In this document: one piece after another, positions 14,653-41,460 of the stretch
Layout: every line of letters begins with the position of its first letter
Numbering within the stretch: position 1 is the first letter of the stretch
Assembly: GCA_041661505.1 (NCBI GenBank)
Contig: JBAZUF010000004.1
Location: 4,861-68,860, forward strand
Reading direction: 5' to 3'
DNA from: Patescibacteria group bacterium
GTDB lineage: Bacteria; Patescibacteriota; Patescibacteriia; Patescibacteriales; JBAZCA01
Length of the DNA: 64,000 nucleotides
Made by a program: the position numbers and the translations under genes
Notes under the pieces: generated by a model
Seen by the model: the letters and a program-made list of their open reading frames with translations, nothing else
Told to the model about the DNA's origin: nothing
The model's database searches: none

Positions 14653-14678
14653 AGAGCCATCCTAAAAGGGGTGGCTCT
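14653..14678. terminator. hairpin agagcca/tggctct between the convergent genes ridA and trpA
   Basis: 7-bp stem with a 12-nt loop, flanked by AT-rich sequence. The T tracts are weak. Confidence 0.35.
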
Positions 14679-35655: not shown

Positions 35656-35844
35656 ATGGAAGAGAATGACGGAATTGTTTGTTTTTGCCGCGTATGCGGT
35701 AAAAAAATGGTAGTTGAGTCAAGGGGCGGCAATCTTGACGCCGCCGCCCTAAAAAACATGCTTTCCTGCTCCGATGCTTGTCGCGAGCGGGAACGCGAGC
35801 AATTAATCTCCGCCCCCAAGAGCATTGTTTTTCAGGGGATATAA
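35656..35844 (+). CDS. small Zn-ribbon-like protein, 62 aa
   Basis: AAGGAGG lies 5 nt upstream of the ATG. Contains CFCRVCG...CSDAC. Confidence 0.5.
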   Translation: MEENDGIVCFCRVCGKKMVVESRGGNLDAAALKNMLSCSDACREREREQLISAPKSIVFQGI

Positions 35845-35855
35845 AAGGAGATATT

Positions 35856-36032
35856 ATGTTCCTTCAAAAGTCCTCCGTTCCGCGGGAGAAAAAAAAGGTA
35901 ACCGTTCTAAACTGCGGAATTTGCGGAAAGGAAGTCAAGCTGGTGGTCGCGAGAGACTATCCAGAAGACCTGATCCGCAAAATGGCGTCCCCGGTTTGCA
36001 AGGAATGCAAAATAGAACTGGGGATAGGATAG
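35856..36032 (+). CDS. small Zn-ribbon-like protein, 58 aa
   Basis: AAGGAG upstream. Contains CGICG...CKEC (two CxxC pairs). Confidence 0.5.
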   Translation: MFLQKSSVPREKKKVTVLNCGICGKEVKLVVARDYPEDLIRKMASPVCKECKIELGIG

Positions 36033-36167
36033 GGGAGAAAGACAAAGAAGTTTGTCTTTCTCCCCTCCTCAATTTAATTTTTATCTTTAAAGATAAGGCT
36101 TGGGTTGAGGAGGATTCTAAATACTAAAGTAGTCAGTGATCTTTTTATAAACGAGGGGGAGAAAAAA

Positions 36168-36542
36168 ATGAGGCTTATGTGGCGGGCAGTAATAGGCAGG
36201 TGTTCGACTCCGGATTGCGGGCTGGATTATGAGCTAGTACCCACGAGCTGGAAAGAAAGAGGGAAAGCAAAGAGAGGGGAATTGCCTTGCCCTGACTGTA
36301 AGTGTTACGAAGCAGTCGTTCTGGCCATTGGTAATTGTATTTCCCAAGGCGGTAGGGCAATAACTAAGGCCGGGGAGATTGTATCAACAACTCTATTGGT
36401 GCCGTGCAAGAATTGTTTAAGAGACTTTCTTTACACGGCCTCCAGCGAGGAAGATGCATTAAGAGCTAAACACGGGGCTGAAATTTGTGTCTTATGCCAG
36501 CAATTAGAAAGGGGAAAAAATGGCAAAACCTGCATGGGGTGA
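36168..36542 (+). CDS. Cys-rich hypothetical protein, 124 aa
   Basis: GAGGGGGAG upstream. Contains several CxxC-type pairs (CSTPDC, CPDCKC, CKNC, CVLC). Confidence 0.5.
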   Translation: MRLMWRAVIGRCSTPDCGLDYELVPTSWKERGKAKRGELPCPDCKCYEAVVLAIGNCISQGGRAITKAGEIVSTTLLVPCKNCLRDFLYTASSEEDALRAKHGAEICVLCQQLERGKNGKTCMG

Positions 36543-36885
36543 TCTCTATCTGAAGCCAGGTGAGGAATATCCAATCGGTCCTCAACCCGGTGATCTCCTG
36601 ATAAACCAAGGACCTGTAATTAAAGGTGTTTGTTCGAAATGCCGCCGTTGGTTTGAGGAGTCGGTGGAAAATTTCGAGATCGTGATGAAGACGAGGAGAT
36701 GCTTTACCTGCCGCGGCAGCGACTGGGGGAGTATTACTTCCCGGCTCATTTTGCACCAAGAGGTGTTGTCTGATGGTTATGTATCAGAAACACCACTTGA
36801 AGATCTTTGGGCGCTGGAGAAACCCCCAACCTCCGTACCGGCAGGAGTTAAAGATTTGGCCGATATCGGGTTCTGGCAAGATTAA
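36520..36885 (+). CDS. hypothetical protein with a CxxC...CxxC motif, 121 aa
   Basis: AAAGGGG upstream. Overlaps the previous ORF by 23 nt. Contains CSKC...CFTC. Confidence 0.5.
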   Translation: MAKPAWGDLYLKPGEEYPIGPQPGDLLINQGPVIKGVCSKCRRWFEESVENFEIVMKTRRCFTCRGSDWGSITSRLILHQEVLSDGYVSETPLEDLWALEKPPTSVPAGVKDLADIGFWQD

Positions 36886-37081: not shown

Positions 37082-38656
37082 ATGCCAAAAGGAGTAAAGA
37101 TTTACGATACAACCTTGCGCGACGGGACCCAGGCGGAGAATTTCAGCCTGACGGTTTCCGATAAAATAAAGATCGCCTTAAAGCTTGATGATTTAGGCCT
37201 GCATTATATTGAAGGCGGCTGGCCGGGTTCTAACCCTAAGGACGCGGCTTTTTTTAATGAAATAAAAAAGCACGAATTGAAAAACGCGGTTATTGTTGCT
37301 TTTGGCTCGACTCATCATCCGGCGGTTTTAGCCGAAGATGACTTGAACCTGAAAGCCTTGGCCGATTCCGGCGCGAAAGCCGTAACAATTTTTGGCAAAG
37401 CCTGGACCGTGCAGGTAAAAGAAGCTTTGAATATCCCGCTGGAAAAAAATTTGGAAATAATTTTAGAAAGCTTAAGAATTTTGAGGCCGCGGGTTAAAGA
37501 GCTTTTTTTTGACGCCGAGCATTTTTTTGACGGTTATAAGGCGGATTCGGAATATGCTTTGGCGGTTTTATCTAGGGCCTTAGAAGGCGGGGCTGATTGT
37601 TTGGTGTTATGCGATACTAACGGCGGAAGCATGCCAAGCGATATCCGGCAAATTATCACTAAAGTCAAAGAAAGGTTTCCTGCGGCGGAATTAGGCATCC
37701 ATGCCCATAACGATTCCGAGCTGGCGGTAGCCAACACCATGACGGCGGTTAAGCTCGGAGCAGTCCAGGTTCAGGGAACGATTAACGGGATTGGCGAACG
37801 CTGCGGAAACGCGAATTTATGCTCAATAATTCCCAATCTGATTTTAAAAAAGGGTGTTATGTGCCTGCCGAAAGAAAATTTAAAAAAATTATCGGCCGCG
37901 AGCCGCTTTGTCAGCGAATTGGCGAATTTAAATCCTAACCGCTATCAGCCGTATGTCGGACAAAGCGCTTTTGCCCATAAGGGCGGAGTGCACATTAACG
38001 CCGCCTTGAAAAATCCGATGACTTATGAGCATATTGATCCGGCTTTGGTCGGGAACATCCGGCGCATTTTAGTTTCCGATCTTTCCGGCCGCTCGGCTAT
38101 AGCGAAAAAATTGGAAGACTTTGGCATTAATTTATCCAAGACTGATCCGGCGGCCTTGAAAATTTTAAATGAAGTAAAGGAATTGGAAAACCACGGCTAT
38201 CAGTTTGAAGCGGCCGAAGCCAGTTTTGAGCTTTTGGCCAGCCGCCTGCTTGGGAAAAACAAAAATTATTTCCAGTTGGTTGATTACCGGGTGACTGACT
38301 GCAAGGCCGGAGAAGGGGAGGCGCCGTCCATCGAGGCAACAGTAAGGATTAAAGTAAAAGATCGCGAAGAGCATAGCACGGCCAAAGGCGTCGGCCCGGT
38401 TGATGCCCTAAACAATGCTTTAAGAAAGTCTTTGGAAAAAATTTATCCCCAGCTAAACGGCATGAAGCTTACGGATTATAAGGTCCGGGTATTGCCGACG
38501 AATGACGGTACGGCGGCCCGGGTAAGGGTATTAATTGAATCCTGCGACGATAAAGACTACTGGGGCACGGTCGGGGTATCAGTTGATATATTAGAGGCAA
38601 GCTGGATGGCTTTAGTCGATAGTTTTAATTACAAATTGTATAAAGAAGAAAAATAA
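37082..38656 (+). CDS. cimA: (R)-citramalate synthase
   Basis: IYDTTLRDGTQAE, the YIEGGWPGSNPKD signature of the CimA branch, HAHNDSELAVANT, and a C-terminal regulatory domain GVGPVDALNNAL...VDILEASWMAL. Confidence 0.8.
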   Translation: MPKGVKIYDTTLRDGTQAENFSLTVSDKIKIALKLDDLGLHYIEGGWPGSNPKDAAFFNEIKKHELKNAVIVAFGSTHHPAVLAEDDLNLKALADSGAKAVTIFGKAWTVQVKEALNIPLEKNLEIILESLRILRPRVKELFFDAEHFFDGYKADSEYALAVLSRALEGGADCLVLCDTNGGSMPSDIRQIITKVKERFPAAELGIHAHNDSELAVANTMTAVKLGAVQVQGTINGIGERCGNANLCSIIPNLILKKGVMCLPKENLKKLSAASRFVSELANLNPNRYQPYVGQSAFAHKGGVHINAALKNPMTYEHIDPALVGNIRRILVSDLSGRSAIAKKLEDFGINLSKTDPAALKILNEVKELENHGYQFEAAEASFELLASRLLGKNKNYFQLVDYRVTDCKAGEGEAPSIEATVRIKVKDREEHSTAKGVGPVDALNNALRKSLEKIYPQLNGMKLTDYKVRVLPTNDGTAARVRVLIESCDDKDYWGTVGVSVDILEASWMALVDSFNYKLYKEEK

Positions 38657-38746: not shown

Positions 38747-39169
38747 ATGGCTGATAATAATATAATCAACGACCAAAATAAGCCGGCTGATAAAGAACCG
38801 ACTCTTTATGATGTTTTAGACGCCATAAATGTTTTTGCGACAAAAACTGATGAGCGGCTTGAGAATATAGAATCAACCATGGTGACTAAAGATTTTTTGG
38901 AAAAACGGTTGACTCCGATAGAATTAACCATGGTAACTAAAGATTTCTTGGAAAAACGGTTAGCGCCCATTGAGGCCAATATGGTAACCCGGGATTATCT
39001 TGATGATAAGCTTGGCGATTTAAAAGGCGATTTGATTGTAACCATGAGAAAAGAAGACGCCAAATTAAGAATTTTGATAGAGATTCTTCGAGGGAAAAGC
39101 GTTATATCCGAAGACGAAGAAAAACGGATTTTATCCATGGAACCGTTTCCTAAGCTATATGTTAGCTAA
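38747..39169 (+). CDS. coiled-coil protein with a 17-aa tandem repeat (TMVTKDFLEKRLxPIEx); paralog of 713..1141
   Basis: 140-aa ORF. Shares the N-terminal KEPTxxDxxxAI and ATxxDxxxENIxS blocks with the 713 protein. Confidence 0.7.
   Translation: MADNNIINDQNKPADKEPTLYDVLDAINVFATKTDERLENIESTMVTKDFLEKRLTPIELTMVTKDFLEKRLAPIEANMVTRDYLDDKLGDLKGDLIVTMRKEDAKLRILIEILRGKSVISEDEEKRILSMEPFPKLYVS
38876..39028 (+). repeat. 51-bp in-frame tandem repeat, 3 units (the third diverged)
   Basis: accatggtgactaaagat... at 38876 and accatggtaactaaagat... at 38927. Confidence 0.85.
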
Positions 39170-39190: not shown

Positions 39191-39219
39191 TTGACATTTG
39201 GTAGGCTCTTCGCTACAAT
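39191..39219 (+). promoter_or_regulatory. promoter TTGACA-17-TACAAT
   Basis: Perfect -35 hexamer and a 5/6 match at -10. The mini-ORF ATG at 39229 is 9 nt after the -10 hexamer. Confidence 0.6.
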
Positions 39220-39228
39220 GGAATCAAT

Positions 39229-39309
39229 ATGAATTTAAACCAAGTCAAAATTGGATCCCCCATTTCCGGCGGTTGTGGCGGTAGTGGCTCATGCATTGAG
39301 CAATTTTGA
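39229..39309 (+). CDS. Gly/Ser/Cys-rich leader peptide MNLNQVKIGSPISGGCGGSGSCIEQF
   Basis: 26 codons with 6 Gly, 4 Ser and 2 Cys in the block SGGCGGSGSC. The stop codon lies inside an antiterminator arm. Confidence 0.55.
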   Translation: MNLNQVKIGSPISGGCGGSGSCIEQF

Positions 39310-39398
39310 GGATGGTTTAAAAAGAAGAACATGCATAGGTTAGCAACAAAGCTAAAATAAGACACAAGCCATCCTCAAAGGGATGGCTTTAGCGTTTT
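39307..39398 (+). terminator. attenuator: tgaggatgg(39307-39315):ccatcctca(39369-39377) versus terminator agccatcc/ggatggct plus a T-rich tail
   Basis: The 9-bp and 8-bp perfect stems share nt 39369-39374. The tail ttagcgtttt is at 39389-39398. Confidence 0.6.
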
Positions 39399-39448
39399 AG
39401 GGGTATAATGCAGTGAACGCTCTTTTTGAAAATTTGGGAGGAATAGCC

Positions 39449-39856
39449 ATGAATCAATTTGATTTTACGGAAGTCGTTGCCGAGGGCGCGGAAAGCGGGA
39501 ATCAAAACGGTCTAATCCGCGGACTCTGCATAAGAGGAGAACATCGCGGAGAGATCATGTGTTTCAGCTTTCCTCAGCCTGTGCAGGGCAAGTTTTTTTG
39601 GACCGTAGAACGAAGTGGCGAGAAGATTTTGTCCTCGGAAAAATGGGAGATTATCCGGAAGGGAGGTGATGAAATGAAAGACTGTTGTCGTGAGACGACG
39701 GACAGTGCGGGTAAAAATAAACATGTTGCTTGCCTGCACTGCGGGGAGAGATGGGAAAAATTCGGCGATAAATGGCGTAAAGAGATACCCCCGGCAAATT
39801 TTAAGCTGGAGGGTGAAATTTACGTCTACGAAGACCACCCCGCCGTACCATCCTGA
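39449..39856 (+). CDS. Cys-rich hypothetical protein, 135 aa
   Basis: GGGAGG lies 8 nt upstream of the ATG. Contains DCC...CLHCG. Sits between the attenuator and cysK. Confidence 0.5.
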   Translation: MNQFDFTEVVAEGAESGNQNGLIRGLCIRGEHRGEIMCFSFPQPVQGKFFWTVERSGEKILSSEKWEIIRKGGDEMKDCCRETTDSAGKNKHVACLHCGERWEKFGDKWRKEIPPANFKLEGEIYVYEDHPAVPS

Positions 39857-39954
39857 TCCGCGTACCGGAGGTGTTTTCTAGAAGGACAAGCTTTGCCTTC
39901 AGGGAACGCCTCCGGTTCCTAATTCCTTATTTAGAATCAGATTTATATACCAGA

Positions 39955-40848
39955 ATGCTTTACAATAATATCCTAGACACAATCGGCAATACGCCGATGG
40001 TAAAAATTAATAATTTGTTCAATAAAGAAGGCGTTAATATTTACGCTAAAATTGAAGGCGTTAATCCGGGCGGAAGCATTAAAGACCGGATTGCCCTAAA
40101 AATGATCGAGCAGGGAGAAAAGGAAGGGAAGTTAAAAAAAGGAAAAACGATTATTGAGGCGACTTCGGGAAATACCGGAATCGCCCTGGCCATGATTGGA
40201 AGTTTAAAAGGCTACGCGGTGGAAATTGTAATGAGTTCGGCTGTTTCGCCGGAACGGGTAAAAATGATAAAGGCTTTTGGCGCTAGTATAATTTTAACCG
40301 GCTCGAACAAAGGGACGGACGGGGCTATAATGAAAGTAAAGGAAATGGTAGCCGGCTGCCCGGAAAAATATTTTAATCCGAACCAATTCTCGAATGAATA
40401 TAATAAAATCGCCCATTATGAGACAACCGGTAAAGAAATTTGGAAAGATATGGGCGGTAAAATCGACTATTTTGCCGCCGCTATCGGTACTTCGGGAACA
40501 CTGATGGGAGTCGGCGCTTATTTAAAAAAAATGAATCCGAATATCAAGGTGGTTTCGGCCGAACCTGTTTTAGGGCATTATATCCAGGGATTAAAGAATA
40601 TGCAGGAGGCGATTGTTCCCGAAATTTATAATCGCGAAAAGCTGGATGATGTTATAATGATTAATACAGAGAAAGCATTTGAAATTTCAAGGGAAATCGT
40701 AAAAAAAGAAGGGATATTTGTCGGCATGTCTTCGGGAGCGGCTATGCTCGCGGCGCTGGAAATCGCCAAAAAAATTGATAAAGGGAATATTGTTACGATT
40801 TTTCCGGACCGGGGAGAAAAATATTTAAGCACAAAGTTGTTTGAGTAA
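39955..40848 (+). CDS. cysK: cysteine synthase (O-acetylserine sulfhydrylase)
   Basis: IGNTPMVKINN, NPGGSIKDRIA (PLP lysine) and TSGNTGIALA. The start was chosen at MLYNNILD. Confidence 0.9.
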   Translation: MLYNNILDTIGNTPMVKINNLFNKEGVNIYAKIEGVNPGGSIKDRIALKMIEQGEKEGKLKKGKTIIEATSGNTGIALAMIGSLKGYAVEIVMSSAVSPERVKMIKAFGASIILTGSNKGTDGAIMKVKEMVAGCPEKYFNPNQFSNEYNKIAHYETTGKEIWKDMGGKIDYFAAAIGTSGTLMGVGAYLKKMNPNIKVVSAEPVLGHYIQGLKNMQEAIVPEIYNREKLDDVIMINTEKAFEISREIVKKEGIFVGMSSGAAMLAALEIAKKIDKGNIVTIFPDRGEKYLSTKLFE

Positions 40849-40958: not shown

Positions 40959-41132
40959 ATGTCCCAAAAAAACGAAAGGAGCGTTATTATCGGAACTTGT
41001 TCTATATGCGGATTCCCGATAATTGAAGGCGACAAGCCTGACAAACACTCAAACCCGACTACTTGCCGAATAAATATTCTTTCGGAGCGTCGACGGGATG
41101 TTGAGAAATTGTCATGCAAGGGGCAGAAATAA
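40959..41132 (+). CDS. small Zn-ribbon-like protein, 57 aa
   Basis: AAAGGAGG upstream. Contains CSICG...C...C. Too short to appear in the ORF track. Confidence 0.45.
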   Translation: MSQKNERSVIIGTCSICGFPIIEGDKPDKHSNPTTCRINILSERRRDVEKLSCKGQK

Positions 41133-41177: not shown

Positions 41178-41318
41178 ATGTCAATCGCCGGGTACAGGGT
41201 GATTAAGGAGGGCCAGCCTAAGGGAGAGGTAGACAATACCCCTAAAGAGGGAACCTCCCTGGAGGACGTGGACGCGAAAGAGCCCTCTGATGACGACAAC
41301 AATGAGGACTGGAGCTAA
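41178..41318 (+). CDS. small acidic protein, 46 aa
   Basis: GAGGAGGGA upstream. C-terminal tail EPSDDDNNEDWS. Confidence 0.35.
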   Translation: MSIAGYRVIKEGQPKGEVDNTPKEGTSLEDVDAKEPSDDDNNEDWS

Positions 41319-41337
41319 CCGCAGTTAGTTCTCGCAA

Positions 41338-41390
41338 CCCGAGAGACGCTATTCTGGCAAACTCAATTCTGCCATGGAGCGTCTCTCGGG
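41338..41390. repeat. 13-bp perfect inverted repeat cccgagagacgct/agcgtctctcggg
   Basis: Strong hairpin with a 27-nt loop and no T tract. It lies between the small ORFs and the serA promoter region. Confidence 0.7.
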
Positions 41391-41460
41391 CTCCAATTTC
41401 CGCCAATCATCTTCCATGTATCAACTTTGATAATATAATTTACAAATTTAAAGATAACAT

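Follow-up and report, generated by a model that had tools for sequence, protein, structure and literature searches.

A candidate leader-peptide transcription attenuator with a Gly/Ser/Cys codon run upstream of the cysteine synthase gene cysK in a Patescibacteria bacterium

The 64,000-nt stretch of DNA analysed here, hereafter the window, belongs to contig JBAZUF010000004.1 (positions 4,861 to 68,860, forward strand) of a Patescibacteria group bacterium (assembly GCA_041661505.1). On its + strand, upstream of the cysteine synthase gene cysK, a compact element (39191–39399) combines a promoter-like sequence, a short leader open reading frame (ORF) carrying a run of Gly, Ser and Cys codons (the G/S/C run), and RNA segments able to form either a terminator or an antiterminator. 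We conclude that this element is most probably a ribosome-mediated (trp-type) transcription attenuator. Such an interpretation had been advanced in an original prediction made from the letters of the sequence and is now supported by comparative data: the G/S/C run is conserved, three mutually exclusive helices are kept, and more distant cysK loci carry leaders that combine runs of three Cys codons (CCC) with a terminator and an antiterminator.

The -35 hexamer TTGACA (39191–39196) and the -10 hexamer TACAAT (39214–39219), separated by 17 nt, constitute the top promoter-like (sigma-70-like) site between positions 38500 and 41500 in a consensus scan, with 11 of 12 matches. Direct reading bore out all sequence statements of the original prediction; as described there, the ATG at 39229 is located 9 nt downstream of TACAAT; a Shine-Dalgarno (SD) sequence is not present. 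Because the ATG follows the -10 hexamer at such a short distance, the 5' untranslated region would span only 0–3 nt, making the messenger leaderless or nearly so, and we infer that transcription probably starts at or within about 3 nt of the AUG. The leader ORF, retrieved from the ORF list (39229–39309, 26 codons plus TGA), encodes the peptide reported in the original prediction, MNLNQVKIGSPISGGCGGSGSCIEQF, in which the G/S/C run accounts for 10 of the 26 codons. Its conservation and its position in the predicted stall zone point to codons 13–22 (S G G C G G S G S C; 39265–39294) as the presumed regulatory codons.

Folding of the region 39225–39400, which had been suggested as a check, yielded a minimum free energy (MFE) of -53.7 kcal/mol (z = -4.5) and three helices distributed over four segments. 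Segment 1 (39234–39253), inside codons 2–9, forms the 5' arm of helix 1:2, the anti-antiterminator. Segment 2 (39299–39320) holds the TGA (39307–39309) and is a partner either of segment 1 or, via 39305–39318, of segment 3 (39366–39379), which constitutes the 3' arm of the antiterminator and whose first part (39366–39375) doubles as the 5' arm of the terminator hairpin. Segment 4 (39380–39389) provides the 3' arm of that hairpin. Helix 1:2, joining the start of the ORF to the stop-codon block, was absent from the original prediction. The complementarity described there between tgaggatgg (39307–39315) and ccatcctca (39369–39377) is exact, and its real extent is larger: 11 nt are perfectly complementary (39305–39315 with 39369–39379), and the whole antiterminator helix comprises 14 bp with one G·U pair (39305–39318 with 39366–39379). 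When the upstream part was shuffled with its dinucleotides preserved, 25 of 5000 shuffles (0.5%) contained a stretch of 9 nt or more perfectly complementary to the terminator arm. The competing hairpin (39366–39375 with 39380–39389; 10 bp, loop CAAA) shares a strand with the antiterminator, as had been proposed.

The T-rich tail attributed to this hairpin does exist, and it proved to be only moderate: the stem is followed at 39390–39399 by UAGCGUUUUA, so that the transcript reads GGCUU-UAGCGUUUUA, that is, UUU, AGCG and UUUU, or UUUAGCGUUUUA when the last UU of the stem is included. The homologous hairpins of relatives carry canonical tails (TTTTTTGTTTT in locus L165 and ATTTTATTT in locus L167). 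No match to Rfam was found in 39191–39450 at E <= 10, with the T-box and SAM (S-adenosylmethionine) models included; at gathering thresholds, Rfam returned only tRNAs in the window and nothing in nine related loci.

Elsewhere in the window, at a convergent gene junction, the hairpin 14653–14678 (GAGCCATCC-TAAAAG-GGGTGGCTC) is very similar to the stem of the leader terminator (AAGCCATCC-TCAAAG-GGATGGCTT) and likewise has a poor T tail. This likeness suggests that the organism tolerates weak tails or that both stems share a common origin.

Relatives of the element were reached through protein searches with cimA (citramalate synthase) and cysK followed by contig look-ups; in 80 cysK loci taken from GTDB genomes and 80 cimA loci taken from JGI metagenomes, neither blastn nor nhmmer detected a DNA homologue of the element. 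Four other contigs that encode the 135-aa orphan protein located downstream of the leader in the window are 100% identical over the element and hence uninformative. The element was found in two further lineages of the same Patescibacteria clade, represented by L165 and by L167/L169/L171. In L165 and L166 (cimA 78% and cysK 86% identical to those of the window) it is situated directly after the cimA stop codon and is followed by a homologue of the N-terminal half of the orphan and then by cysK. In L167 to L173 (cysK 81–82% identical) the element stands directly upstream of cysK. A profile built from the five aligned elements recovered one copy per locus, always 5' of cysK or of the orphan-cysK pair, and nothing else in the 1.37 Mb scanned.

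Several features are kept among the relatives. They include the -35 sequence ATTGACA, without variation in the five aligned elements, a -10 hexamer, the ATG in a single alignment column, and an open frame of 26, 30 or 32 codons. Also kept are a near-invariant segment-2 block (TTTTGAGGATGGTTT) and the CC(A/G)TCCTCA block together with the hairpin it belongs to. Conservation is lacking in the spacer that separates segments 2 and 3 and in the ORF structure lying between segments 1 and 2. In L167 the stop codon is positioned 21 nt past segment 2, where masking by a finishing ribosome would be transient.

The leader peptides of L165 (MELTISKTRLSICGGSGSGGSGCESILRMV) and L167 (MNISIFKMSLSGGCGGSGSKPVLRMVSHESKV) were compared with that of the window to assess constraint at the codon level. 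The peptide SGGCGGSGS is the same in the window and in L167 although 11 of its 27 nucleotides differ, and these differences comprise two switches between serine codon families (AGY versus UCN), AGT/TCG and TCA/AGC. Random sets of 11 substitutions never left the SGGCGGSGS peptide intact in 200000 trials, and the remaining two frames of this stretch are not conserved between the window and L167. Since the peptide survives such divergence, serine family switches included, these data provide strong evidence that the G/S/C stretch is decoded as codons and that the identity of its Gly, Ser and Cys residues is under selection.

The original prediction would have been abandoned if the composition of the mini-ORF had been lost in relatives. 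The composition is kept, and conservation within the peptide is highest in the G/S/C run; the N-terminal half is not conserved. Across the G/S/C-type leaders four Gly positions and one Ser position of the run are invariant, and the Cys residues shift: in the alignment, the window has them at columns 4 and 10, L165 at columns 1 and 11, and L167 at column 4 only. The L165 run is a permuted version (CGGSGSGGSGC), its composition being kept better than its order. At the DNA level, the run in the window forms a 9-nt tandem repeat (GGCGGTNGT, 2.3 copies).

Conservation of the three helices was evaluated by counting paired cells on the five-element alignment (A3), using as control the same alignment with one arm slid by a single column. 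The antiterminator was paired in 95.7% of cells, compared with at most 59% after sliding, and showed two one-sided compatible changes (U-A/U·G). The terminator helix reached 85%, with two compensatory pairs, e.g., an A-U pair of the window replaced by G-C in the others (columns 212/229). Helix 1:2 reached 88.6%, with one compensatory pair, C-G to U-A in L171, both of whose changes are synonymous in the ORF (TTC to TTT and TTG to TTA). Sliding by a single column lowered pairing to 61% or less for all three helices. The covariation signal is thus consistent, though short of statistically overwhelming.

To model the translating ribosome, only RNA 3' of an assumed footprint was folded, with the 3' edge of the footprint placed 15 nt past the first base of the A-site codon; a model that permitted pairing across the ribosome was dropped, as it gave meaningless 1:2 helices spanning the footprint. 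The free RNA of the window folded into helix 1:2 plus the terminator. With the A site at Cys16, segment 2 was free and the 14-bp antiterminator was the MFE structure even with segment 4 present, and with the ribosome at the stop codon only the terminator formed. The same logic of stall and stop codon held for L165, L167 and L171 in downstream-only folds. When segment 4 was added, the antiterminator remained the MFE structure in L167 and L171 but not in L165. The free-RNA minimum of L167 kept the terminator and had no helix 1:2. Furthermore, a codon-by-codon scan of L167 favoured the antiterminator only for A-site codons 8–20, which correspond to the SLSGGCGGSGS run, and in the window the antiterminator zone ended at codon 21/22, where the G/S/C run ends. 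These folds indicate that the switch would be thermodynamically feasible, and they speak to feasibility, not function.

On this basis, we propose the following mechanism. A sigma-70-type promoter would start the transcript at or near the AUG, and a ribosome would load once the 5' end emerges. With ample charged tRNA, the ribosome would reach the UGA at 39307 and cover segment 2, allowing segments 3 and 4 to form the terminator, and transcription would stop near 39390–39399. A ribosome stalled in codons 13–22 would instead hold segment 1 off segment 2, so that segments 2 and 3 could pair (14 bp) and no terminator would form; RNA polymerase would then read into the orphan gene and, presumably, into cysK. 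If the leader were not translated, segments 1 and 2 would pair and the terminator would form. The signal would be the supply of Cys-tRNA, and probably also that of Ser- and Gly-tRNA.

Other Patescibacteria cysK loci, whose cysK products are 75–76% identical, carry non-homologous but equivalent leaders, i.e., short ORFs with CCC runs. The peptides are MKNIFKIQSIACCCILEKISGMLCLGLK in L174, MFKKYIEIRNCCCALWCTRE in L176 and ...KKIFAVVCCCSWT in L180, each preceding a cysK-cysS operon, and MNKRIVVKNNICACSCETISRAVCCCGR in L179 and MIKIHTNSMACCCSSYCESC in L041 (Ca. Moraniibacteriota), each preceding cysK; CCC-type loci are thus mostly cysK-cysS. A hairpin and a T-run follow each of these five ORFs, and the complement to the 5' arm of the hairpin sits inside or just after the ORF. 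The ATG is located 6–9 nt after the best -10 hexamer in seven of the eight bacterial leaders (6 nt in L167, L171, L176, L179 and L041), a distance that points to leaderless or nearly leaderless translation in the family; the eighth is L165, with 14 nt. Attenuation by a Cys leader peptide thus seems to be a solution used repeatedly for cysK in the group, and the window would represent its G/S/C-rich variant. The cysK gene of L177 has only an 84-nt spacer and no leader. A match to the peptide motif in L130 (MHGFSSCGGSG...), lying antisense to a gene start in an unrelated high-GC context, was rejected as a chance hit.

Comparable short ORFs were also observed in archaeal metagenome-assembled genomes. 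Leaderless-looking ORFs ending in CCC or CCCC and a stop codon precede cysK in L018 (2633–5311), L009 (~1513–1578) and L005 (2834–2884), each with a TATA-like box 22–23 nt before the ATG. The gene order in L018 is Nop, fibrillarin, the short ORF (MINTIYLGCCCC), tRNA-Cys(GCA), cysK and cysS, and the Nop and fibrillarin genes mark this contig as truly archaeal. If true, sensing of Cys by ribosomes on a leader ORF would be new for Archaea.

Several observations weigh against an attenuator in the window. The folds are equilibrium calculations that assume a footprint of +12 to +15 nt, and in L165 the terminator is often the MFE structure even during a stall. The covariation counts are small, the G/S/C type is known from three independent lineages only, and the observed pairing of helix 1:2 was reached in 209 of 500 shuffles. 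The leader ORF has no SD sequence, its start site was placed from sequence only, and the ATG of L165 lies 14 nt after the -10 hexamer. The U tail of the window is interrupted (UUUAGCGUUUU), and a consensus terminator scan did not call the + strand hairpin. The window leader has no tandem Cys codons (its two, Cys16 and Cys22, stand five codons apart) and that of L167 has a single one, which is atypical for a Cys sensor. Finally, in the window and in L165 the orphan gene and a hairpin of -39 kcal/mol part the leader from cysK.

With respect to the signal, the original prediction cautioned that sensing of Ser or Gly is no less possible than sensing of Cys, and this still holds: if the element is an attenuator, sensing of Cys only and sensing of Cys plus Ser and/or Gly are roughly equally likely. 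Cys is implicated because the sister leaders are of the CCC type and the regulated enzyme is a cysteine synthase. Ser- and Gly-tRNA are probably sensed too, since the Ser and Gly codon identities are conserved while the Cys positions move, and since the run lies in the productive stall zone. According to the Cys-only alternative, the architecture would be the same and the Gly and Ser residues would be kept as a neutral flexible chain or as a product of slippage at the 9-nt repeat. We give this alternative a real chance, though less than an even one. It accords with the tandem-repeat nature of the run, with the use of CCC runs by all the more distant cysK leaders, with the cysteine synthase as regulated gene, with the presence of at least one Cys codon inside the productive stall zone of every G/S/C-type leader, and with Cys being the demonstrated signal in mycobacteria (10.1101/834739). 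However, the Cys positions move whereas four Gly and one Ser are invariant, the retention of serine despite changes of codon family suggests that Ser itself is selected, and the lone Cys codon of L167 would make a weak sensor compared with the CCC runs of relatives. A broader and more speculative proposal, which we hold only tentatively, is that the element is a multivalent serine-family attenuator responding to the charging of tRNA-Ser, tRNA-Gly and tRNA-Cys, evolved from a CCC leader once cysK joined serA-serC-serB, and that the poly-Cys short ORFs of the L018 kind are archaeal ribosome-sensed leaders.

Alternatives that dispense with codon sensing, or with attenuation altogether, appear much less likely. 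Nascent-peptide arrest, in which GGCGGSGS would halt the ribosome from within the exit tunnel on sensing a small molecule such as O-acetylserine, sulfide or cysteine, as in the TnaC or Erm leaders, would operate the same RNA switch, which is indifferent to the cause of the stall, and it would agree with the conservation of the amino-acid sequence and not of composition alone. Nevertheless, L165 permutes the run and the plain CCC runs of the sister leaders fit codon sensing; moreover, the arrest peptides characterised so far typically contain bulky or charged residues, which are missing from Gly/Ser-rich stretches. We consider this explanation improbable. Slightly less credit still goes to an independent micropeptide or small RNA gene with its own promoter and terminator, the downstream genes being expressed from a separate promoter such as the TATAAT at 39404–39409. 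The layout of promoter, ORF and hairpin is typical of such a gene, the TATAAT hexamer does follow the hairpin in the window, and G/S/C-rich peptides are reminiscent of microcin B17-like cores. On the other hand, no modification enzymes are encoded nearby, the TATAAT hexamer has no -35 sequence and is not conserved in L165, and the L167-type hairpin is only 12 nt away from the cysK ATG. In addition, the complementarity of the stop-codon block to both the ORF start and the terminator arm, present in all lineages, would have no use in a stand-alone gene. The least probable reading, to which we assign very little weight, is an untranslated cis-regulatory RNA (a riboswitch or a protein-binding leader) with an incidental ORF; the strong structure (z = -4.5), the missing SD sequence and a highly conserved block of 15–22 nt would suit it, but the codon-like substitution pattern, the start codon at a leaderless distance from the -10 hexamer across the family, the unconserved structure between segments 1 and 2 and the negative Rfam search at E <= 10 all argue otherwise. 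A ribosome-mediated attenuator thus remains our preferred interpretation.

Regarding the genes that the attenuator would control, the original prediction assigned it to the cysK transcription unit. In the L167-type relatives the leader does abut cysK: in L167, L169, L171 and L173 the terminator stem ends 12 nt before the cysK ATG, a gap with no room for another promoter, so cysK there has to be transcribed through the leader. This arrangement argues that cysK is the ancestral target. In the window, by contrast, the first gene downstream of the leader is the 135-aa orphan (39449–39856, + strand), preceded by a strong SD sequence (GGGAGG), and a long stable hairpin (39864–39916; -39.4 kcal/mol, z = -5.2) intervenes before cysK. 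The cysK gene itself (39955–40848, + strand), the presumed regulated gene, encodes a cysK/cysM-type cysteine synthase (TIGR01136, 370 bits, above the cut-off), and its co-transcription with the leader is inferred from the L167-type relatives. The hairpin 39864–39916 is kept in L165 and has a moderately U-rich stretch behind it; it does not belong to any dispersed repeat. Its role could be that of a terminator, a processing site, a stabiliser or a second control point. If it terminates efficiently, cysK needs another promoter, and a consensus scan revealed none evident in the 38 nt before the cysK ATG of the window.

The 135-aa orphan has no relatives in GTDB genome contigs, retrieved only itself in a search of 5.8 billion proteins and three matches among 1.84 billion representative proteins, and belongs to no Pfam or NCBIfam family. 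It consists of a conserved N-terminal part of about 70 aa, beginning MNQFDF..., and a Cys-rich tail; an 86-aa version follows the leader in L165, and the gene is absent from L167-type loci, so that it offers no anchor for synteny beyond L165.

In the window, cysK is followed by two small ORFs, serA, serC and a serB-like gene. The six distinct G/S/C loci beside the window (L165, L167, L169, L171, L173 and L172) also have cysK followed by serA, and serC-serB come after serA wherever the contig reaches, that of L172 being cut inside serC; L170 carries the leader on a contig that ends right after cysK and is therefore uninformative on serA. Because the G/S/C loci form one clade, the cysK-serA linkage amounts to one evolutionary observation only. 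Between cysK and serA no + strand terminator is present in the window, L165 or L167, but promoter-like sites precede serA, which may be transcribed either with cysK or separately. The gap between them in the window contains a 13-bp GC-rich hairpin without a U tract (41338–41391), about 70 nt upstream of serA (z = -4.6 for 41290–41460), preceded by two small SD-bearing ORFs (40959–41132 and 41178–41318).

Upstream of the leader lie cimA (37082–38656) and a 140-aa orphan ORF (38747–39169). The latter contains a 51-nt tandem repeat (2.4 copies, 38867–38988) encoding ...MVTKDFLEKRLxPIE... and is absent from L165, where cimA directly adjoins the leader. The region 35778–36885, 5' of cimA, comprises small overlapping ORFs for Cys-rich, zinc-ribbon-like peptides with CxxC motifs and no family match; in relatives, other small ORFs occupy the corresponding site. 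A search of the window for leader ORFs ahead of cimA and pheA revealed none. The cimA, cysK and serA genes of the window (37082, 39955 and 41461) have no recognisable SD sequence, and a promoter-like site in L167 (6815–6847) ends 3 nt before the serA ATG, which hints that leaderless or SD-independent initiation may be common in the lineage.

Compared with the classical leader-peptide attenuators, namely trpL, hisL, leuL, thrL, ilvL and pheL of Proteobacteria and the trp and ilvB leaders of Actinobacteria (PMC1262725), the window element is alike in having a promoter-proximal ORF with regulatory codons, four segments with mutually exclusive 1:2, 2:3 and 3:4 pairings, a stop codon at which a ribosome ending translation would cover segment 2, and a predicted intrinsic terminator, here with a weak tail, before the structural genes. 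Its architecture therefore has the defining features of this class except for the weak tail, and an equivalent physiological response is predicted. In mixing codons for several amino acids it resembles the multivalent leaders of thr and ilv operons. Differences lie in the amino acids, since the classical leaders use Trp, His, Leu, Thr, Ile, Val or Phe and the window uses Cys, Ser and Gly, interleaved rather than in a homopolymeric run, as well as in the missing SD sequence, in the start codons of the family located 6–9 nt after the -10 hexamer, and in the host, a member of the Patescibacteria (candidate phyla radiation).

The original prediction placed leader-peptide control of Cys genes outside the classical repertoire. 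A precedent exists in Actinobacteria (PMC1262725; 10.1101/834739), and in this respect the statement was too broad; for Patescibacteria it holds in the literature searched. In mycobacteria, Cys-sensing leaderless short ORFs have been shown experimentally (10.1101/834739), and the polycysteine set, or Cys ribulon, includes Ms5788A and Rv2334A, the latter 5' of cysK1-cysE (bioRxiv 10.1101/834739). The window shares with this set a leaderless-looking short ORF with Cys codons, missed by gene callers, upstream of Cys-metabolism genes including cysK, and, as proposed here, ribosome pausing as the sensor of Cys-tRNA. However, two or more consecutive Cys codons were a selection criterion for the mycobacterial ORFs (10.1101/834739); such codons are present in L174, L176, L179, L180 and L041 but not in the window. 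Moreover, the mechanism demonstrated for Ms5788A is translational, with sequestration of a downstream SD sequence and no intrinsic terminator (10.1101/834739), whereas a conserved terminator/antiterminator pair is found here, its hairpin and U tract lying 60 nt upstream of the SD sequence of the orphan. No pairing of the leader to the GGGAGG of the orphan was found, nor any sequence homology of the window element to the mycobacterial short ORFs. Having no consecutive Cys codons, a terminator in place of SD sequestration and no sequence similarity, the window element is not a member of the mycobacterial polycysteine set.

Cys leader peptides were also predicted in 2005 for the cys operons of Mycobacterium and Propionibacterium and for cbs of Bifidobacterium (PMC1262725). 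As in Patescibacteria, these are short ORFs upstream of cys genes with runs of Cys codons near the stop. No terminator or antiterminator hairpins were found for them, and Rho dependence was suggested (PMC1262725), whereas the Patescibacteria leaders have clear terminators, consisting of a hairpin and a U tract, overlapped by an antiterminator. The T-box and S-box (SAM) leaders of cysK, cysE and cysS in Firmicutes perform the same task with the same output, conditional intrinsic termination; sensing there is done by RNA through binding of uncharged tRNA or SAM, and in the window it would fall to the translating ribosome. A full-text literature search retrieved no paper joining Patescibacteria, attenuation and leader peptides, related queries returned no description of such leaders in the group, and one survey of premature terminators does not mention a Cys leader. 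A Cys/Ser/Gly attenuator is thus undescribed for Patescibacteria in the literature searched.

Patescibacteria are uncultured organisms with small genomes whose gene regulation is almost uncharted, and a device that needs no protein factor and can be read from sequence offers a handle on the control of one of the few biosynthetic pathways left to them. Such leaders go unannotated because their ORFs are too short for gene callers, and whole families of them may be missed. The G/S/C variant further raises the question of whether one leader integrates the supply of three linked amino acids, Ser giving rise to both Gly and Cys. In comparison with the systems described above, the element would show that Cys-sensing leader ORFs are not confined to Actinobacteria and the translational mechanism demonstrated there, and that outside that phylum they occur in the classical terminator/antiterminator form.

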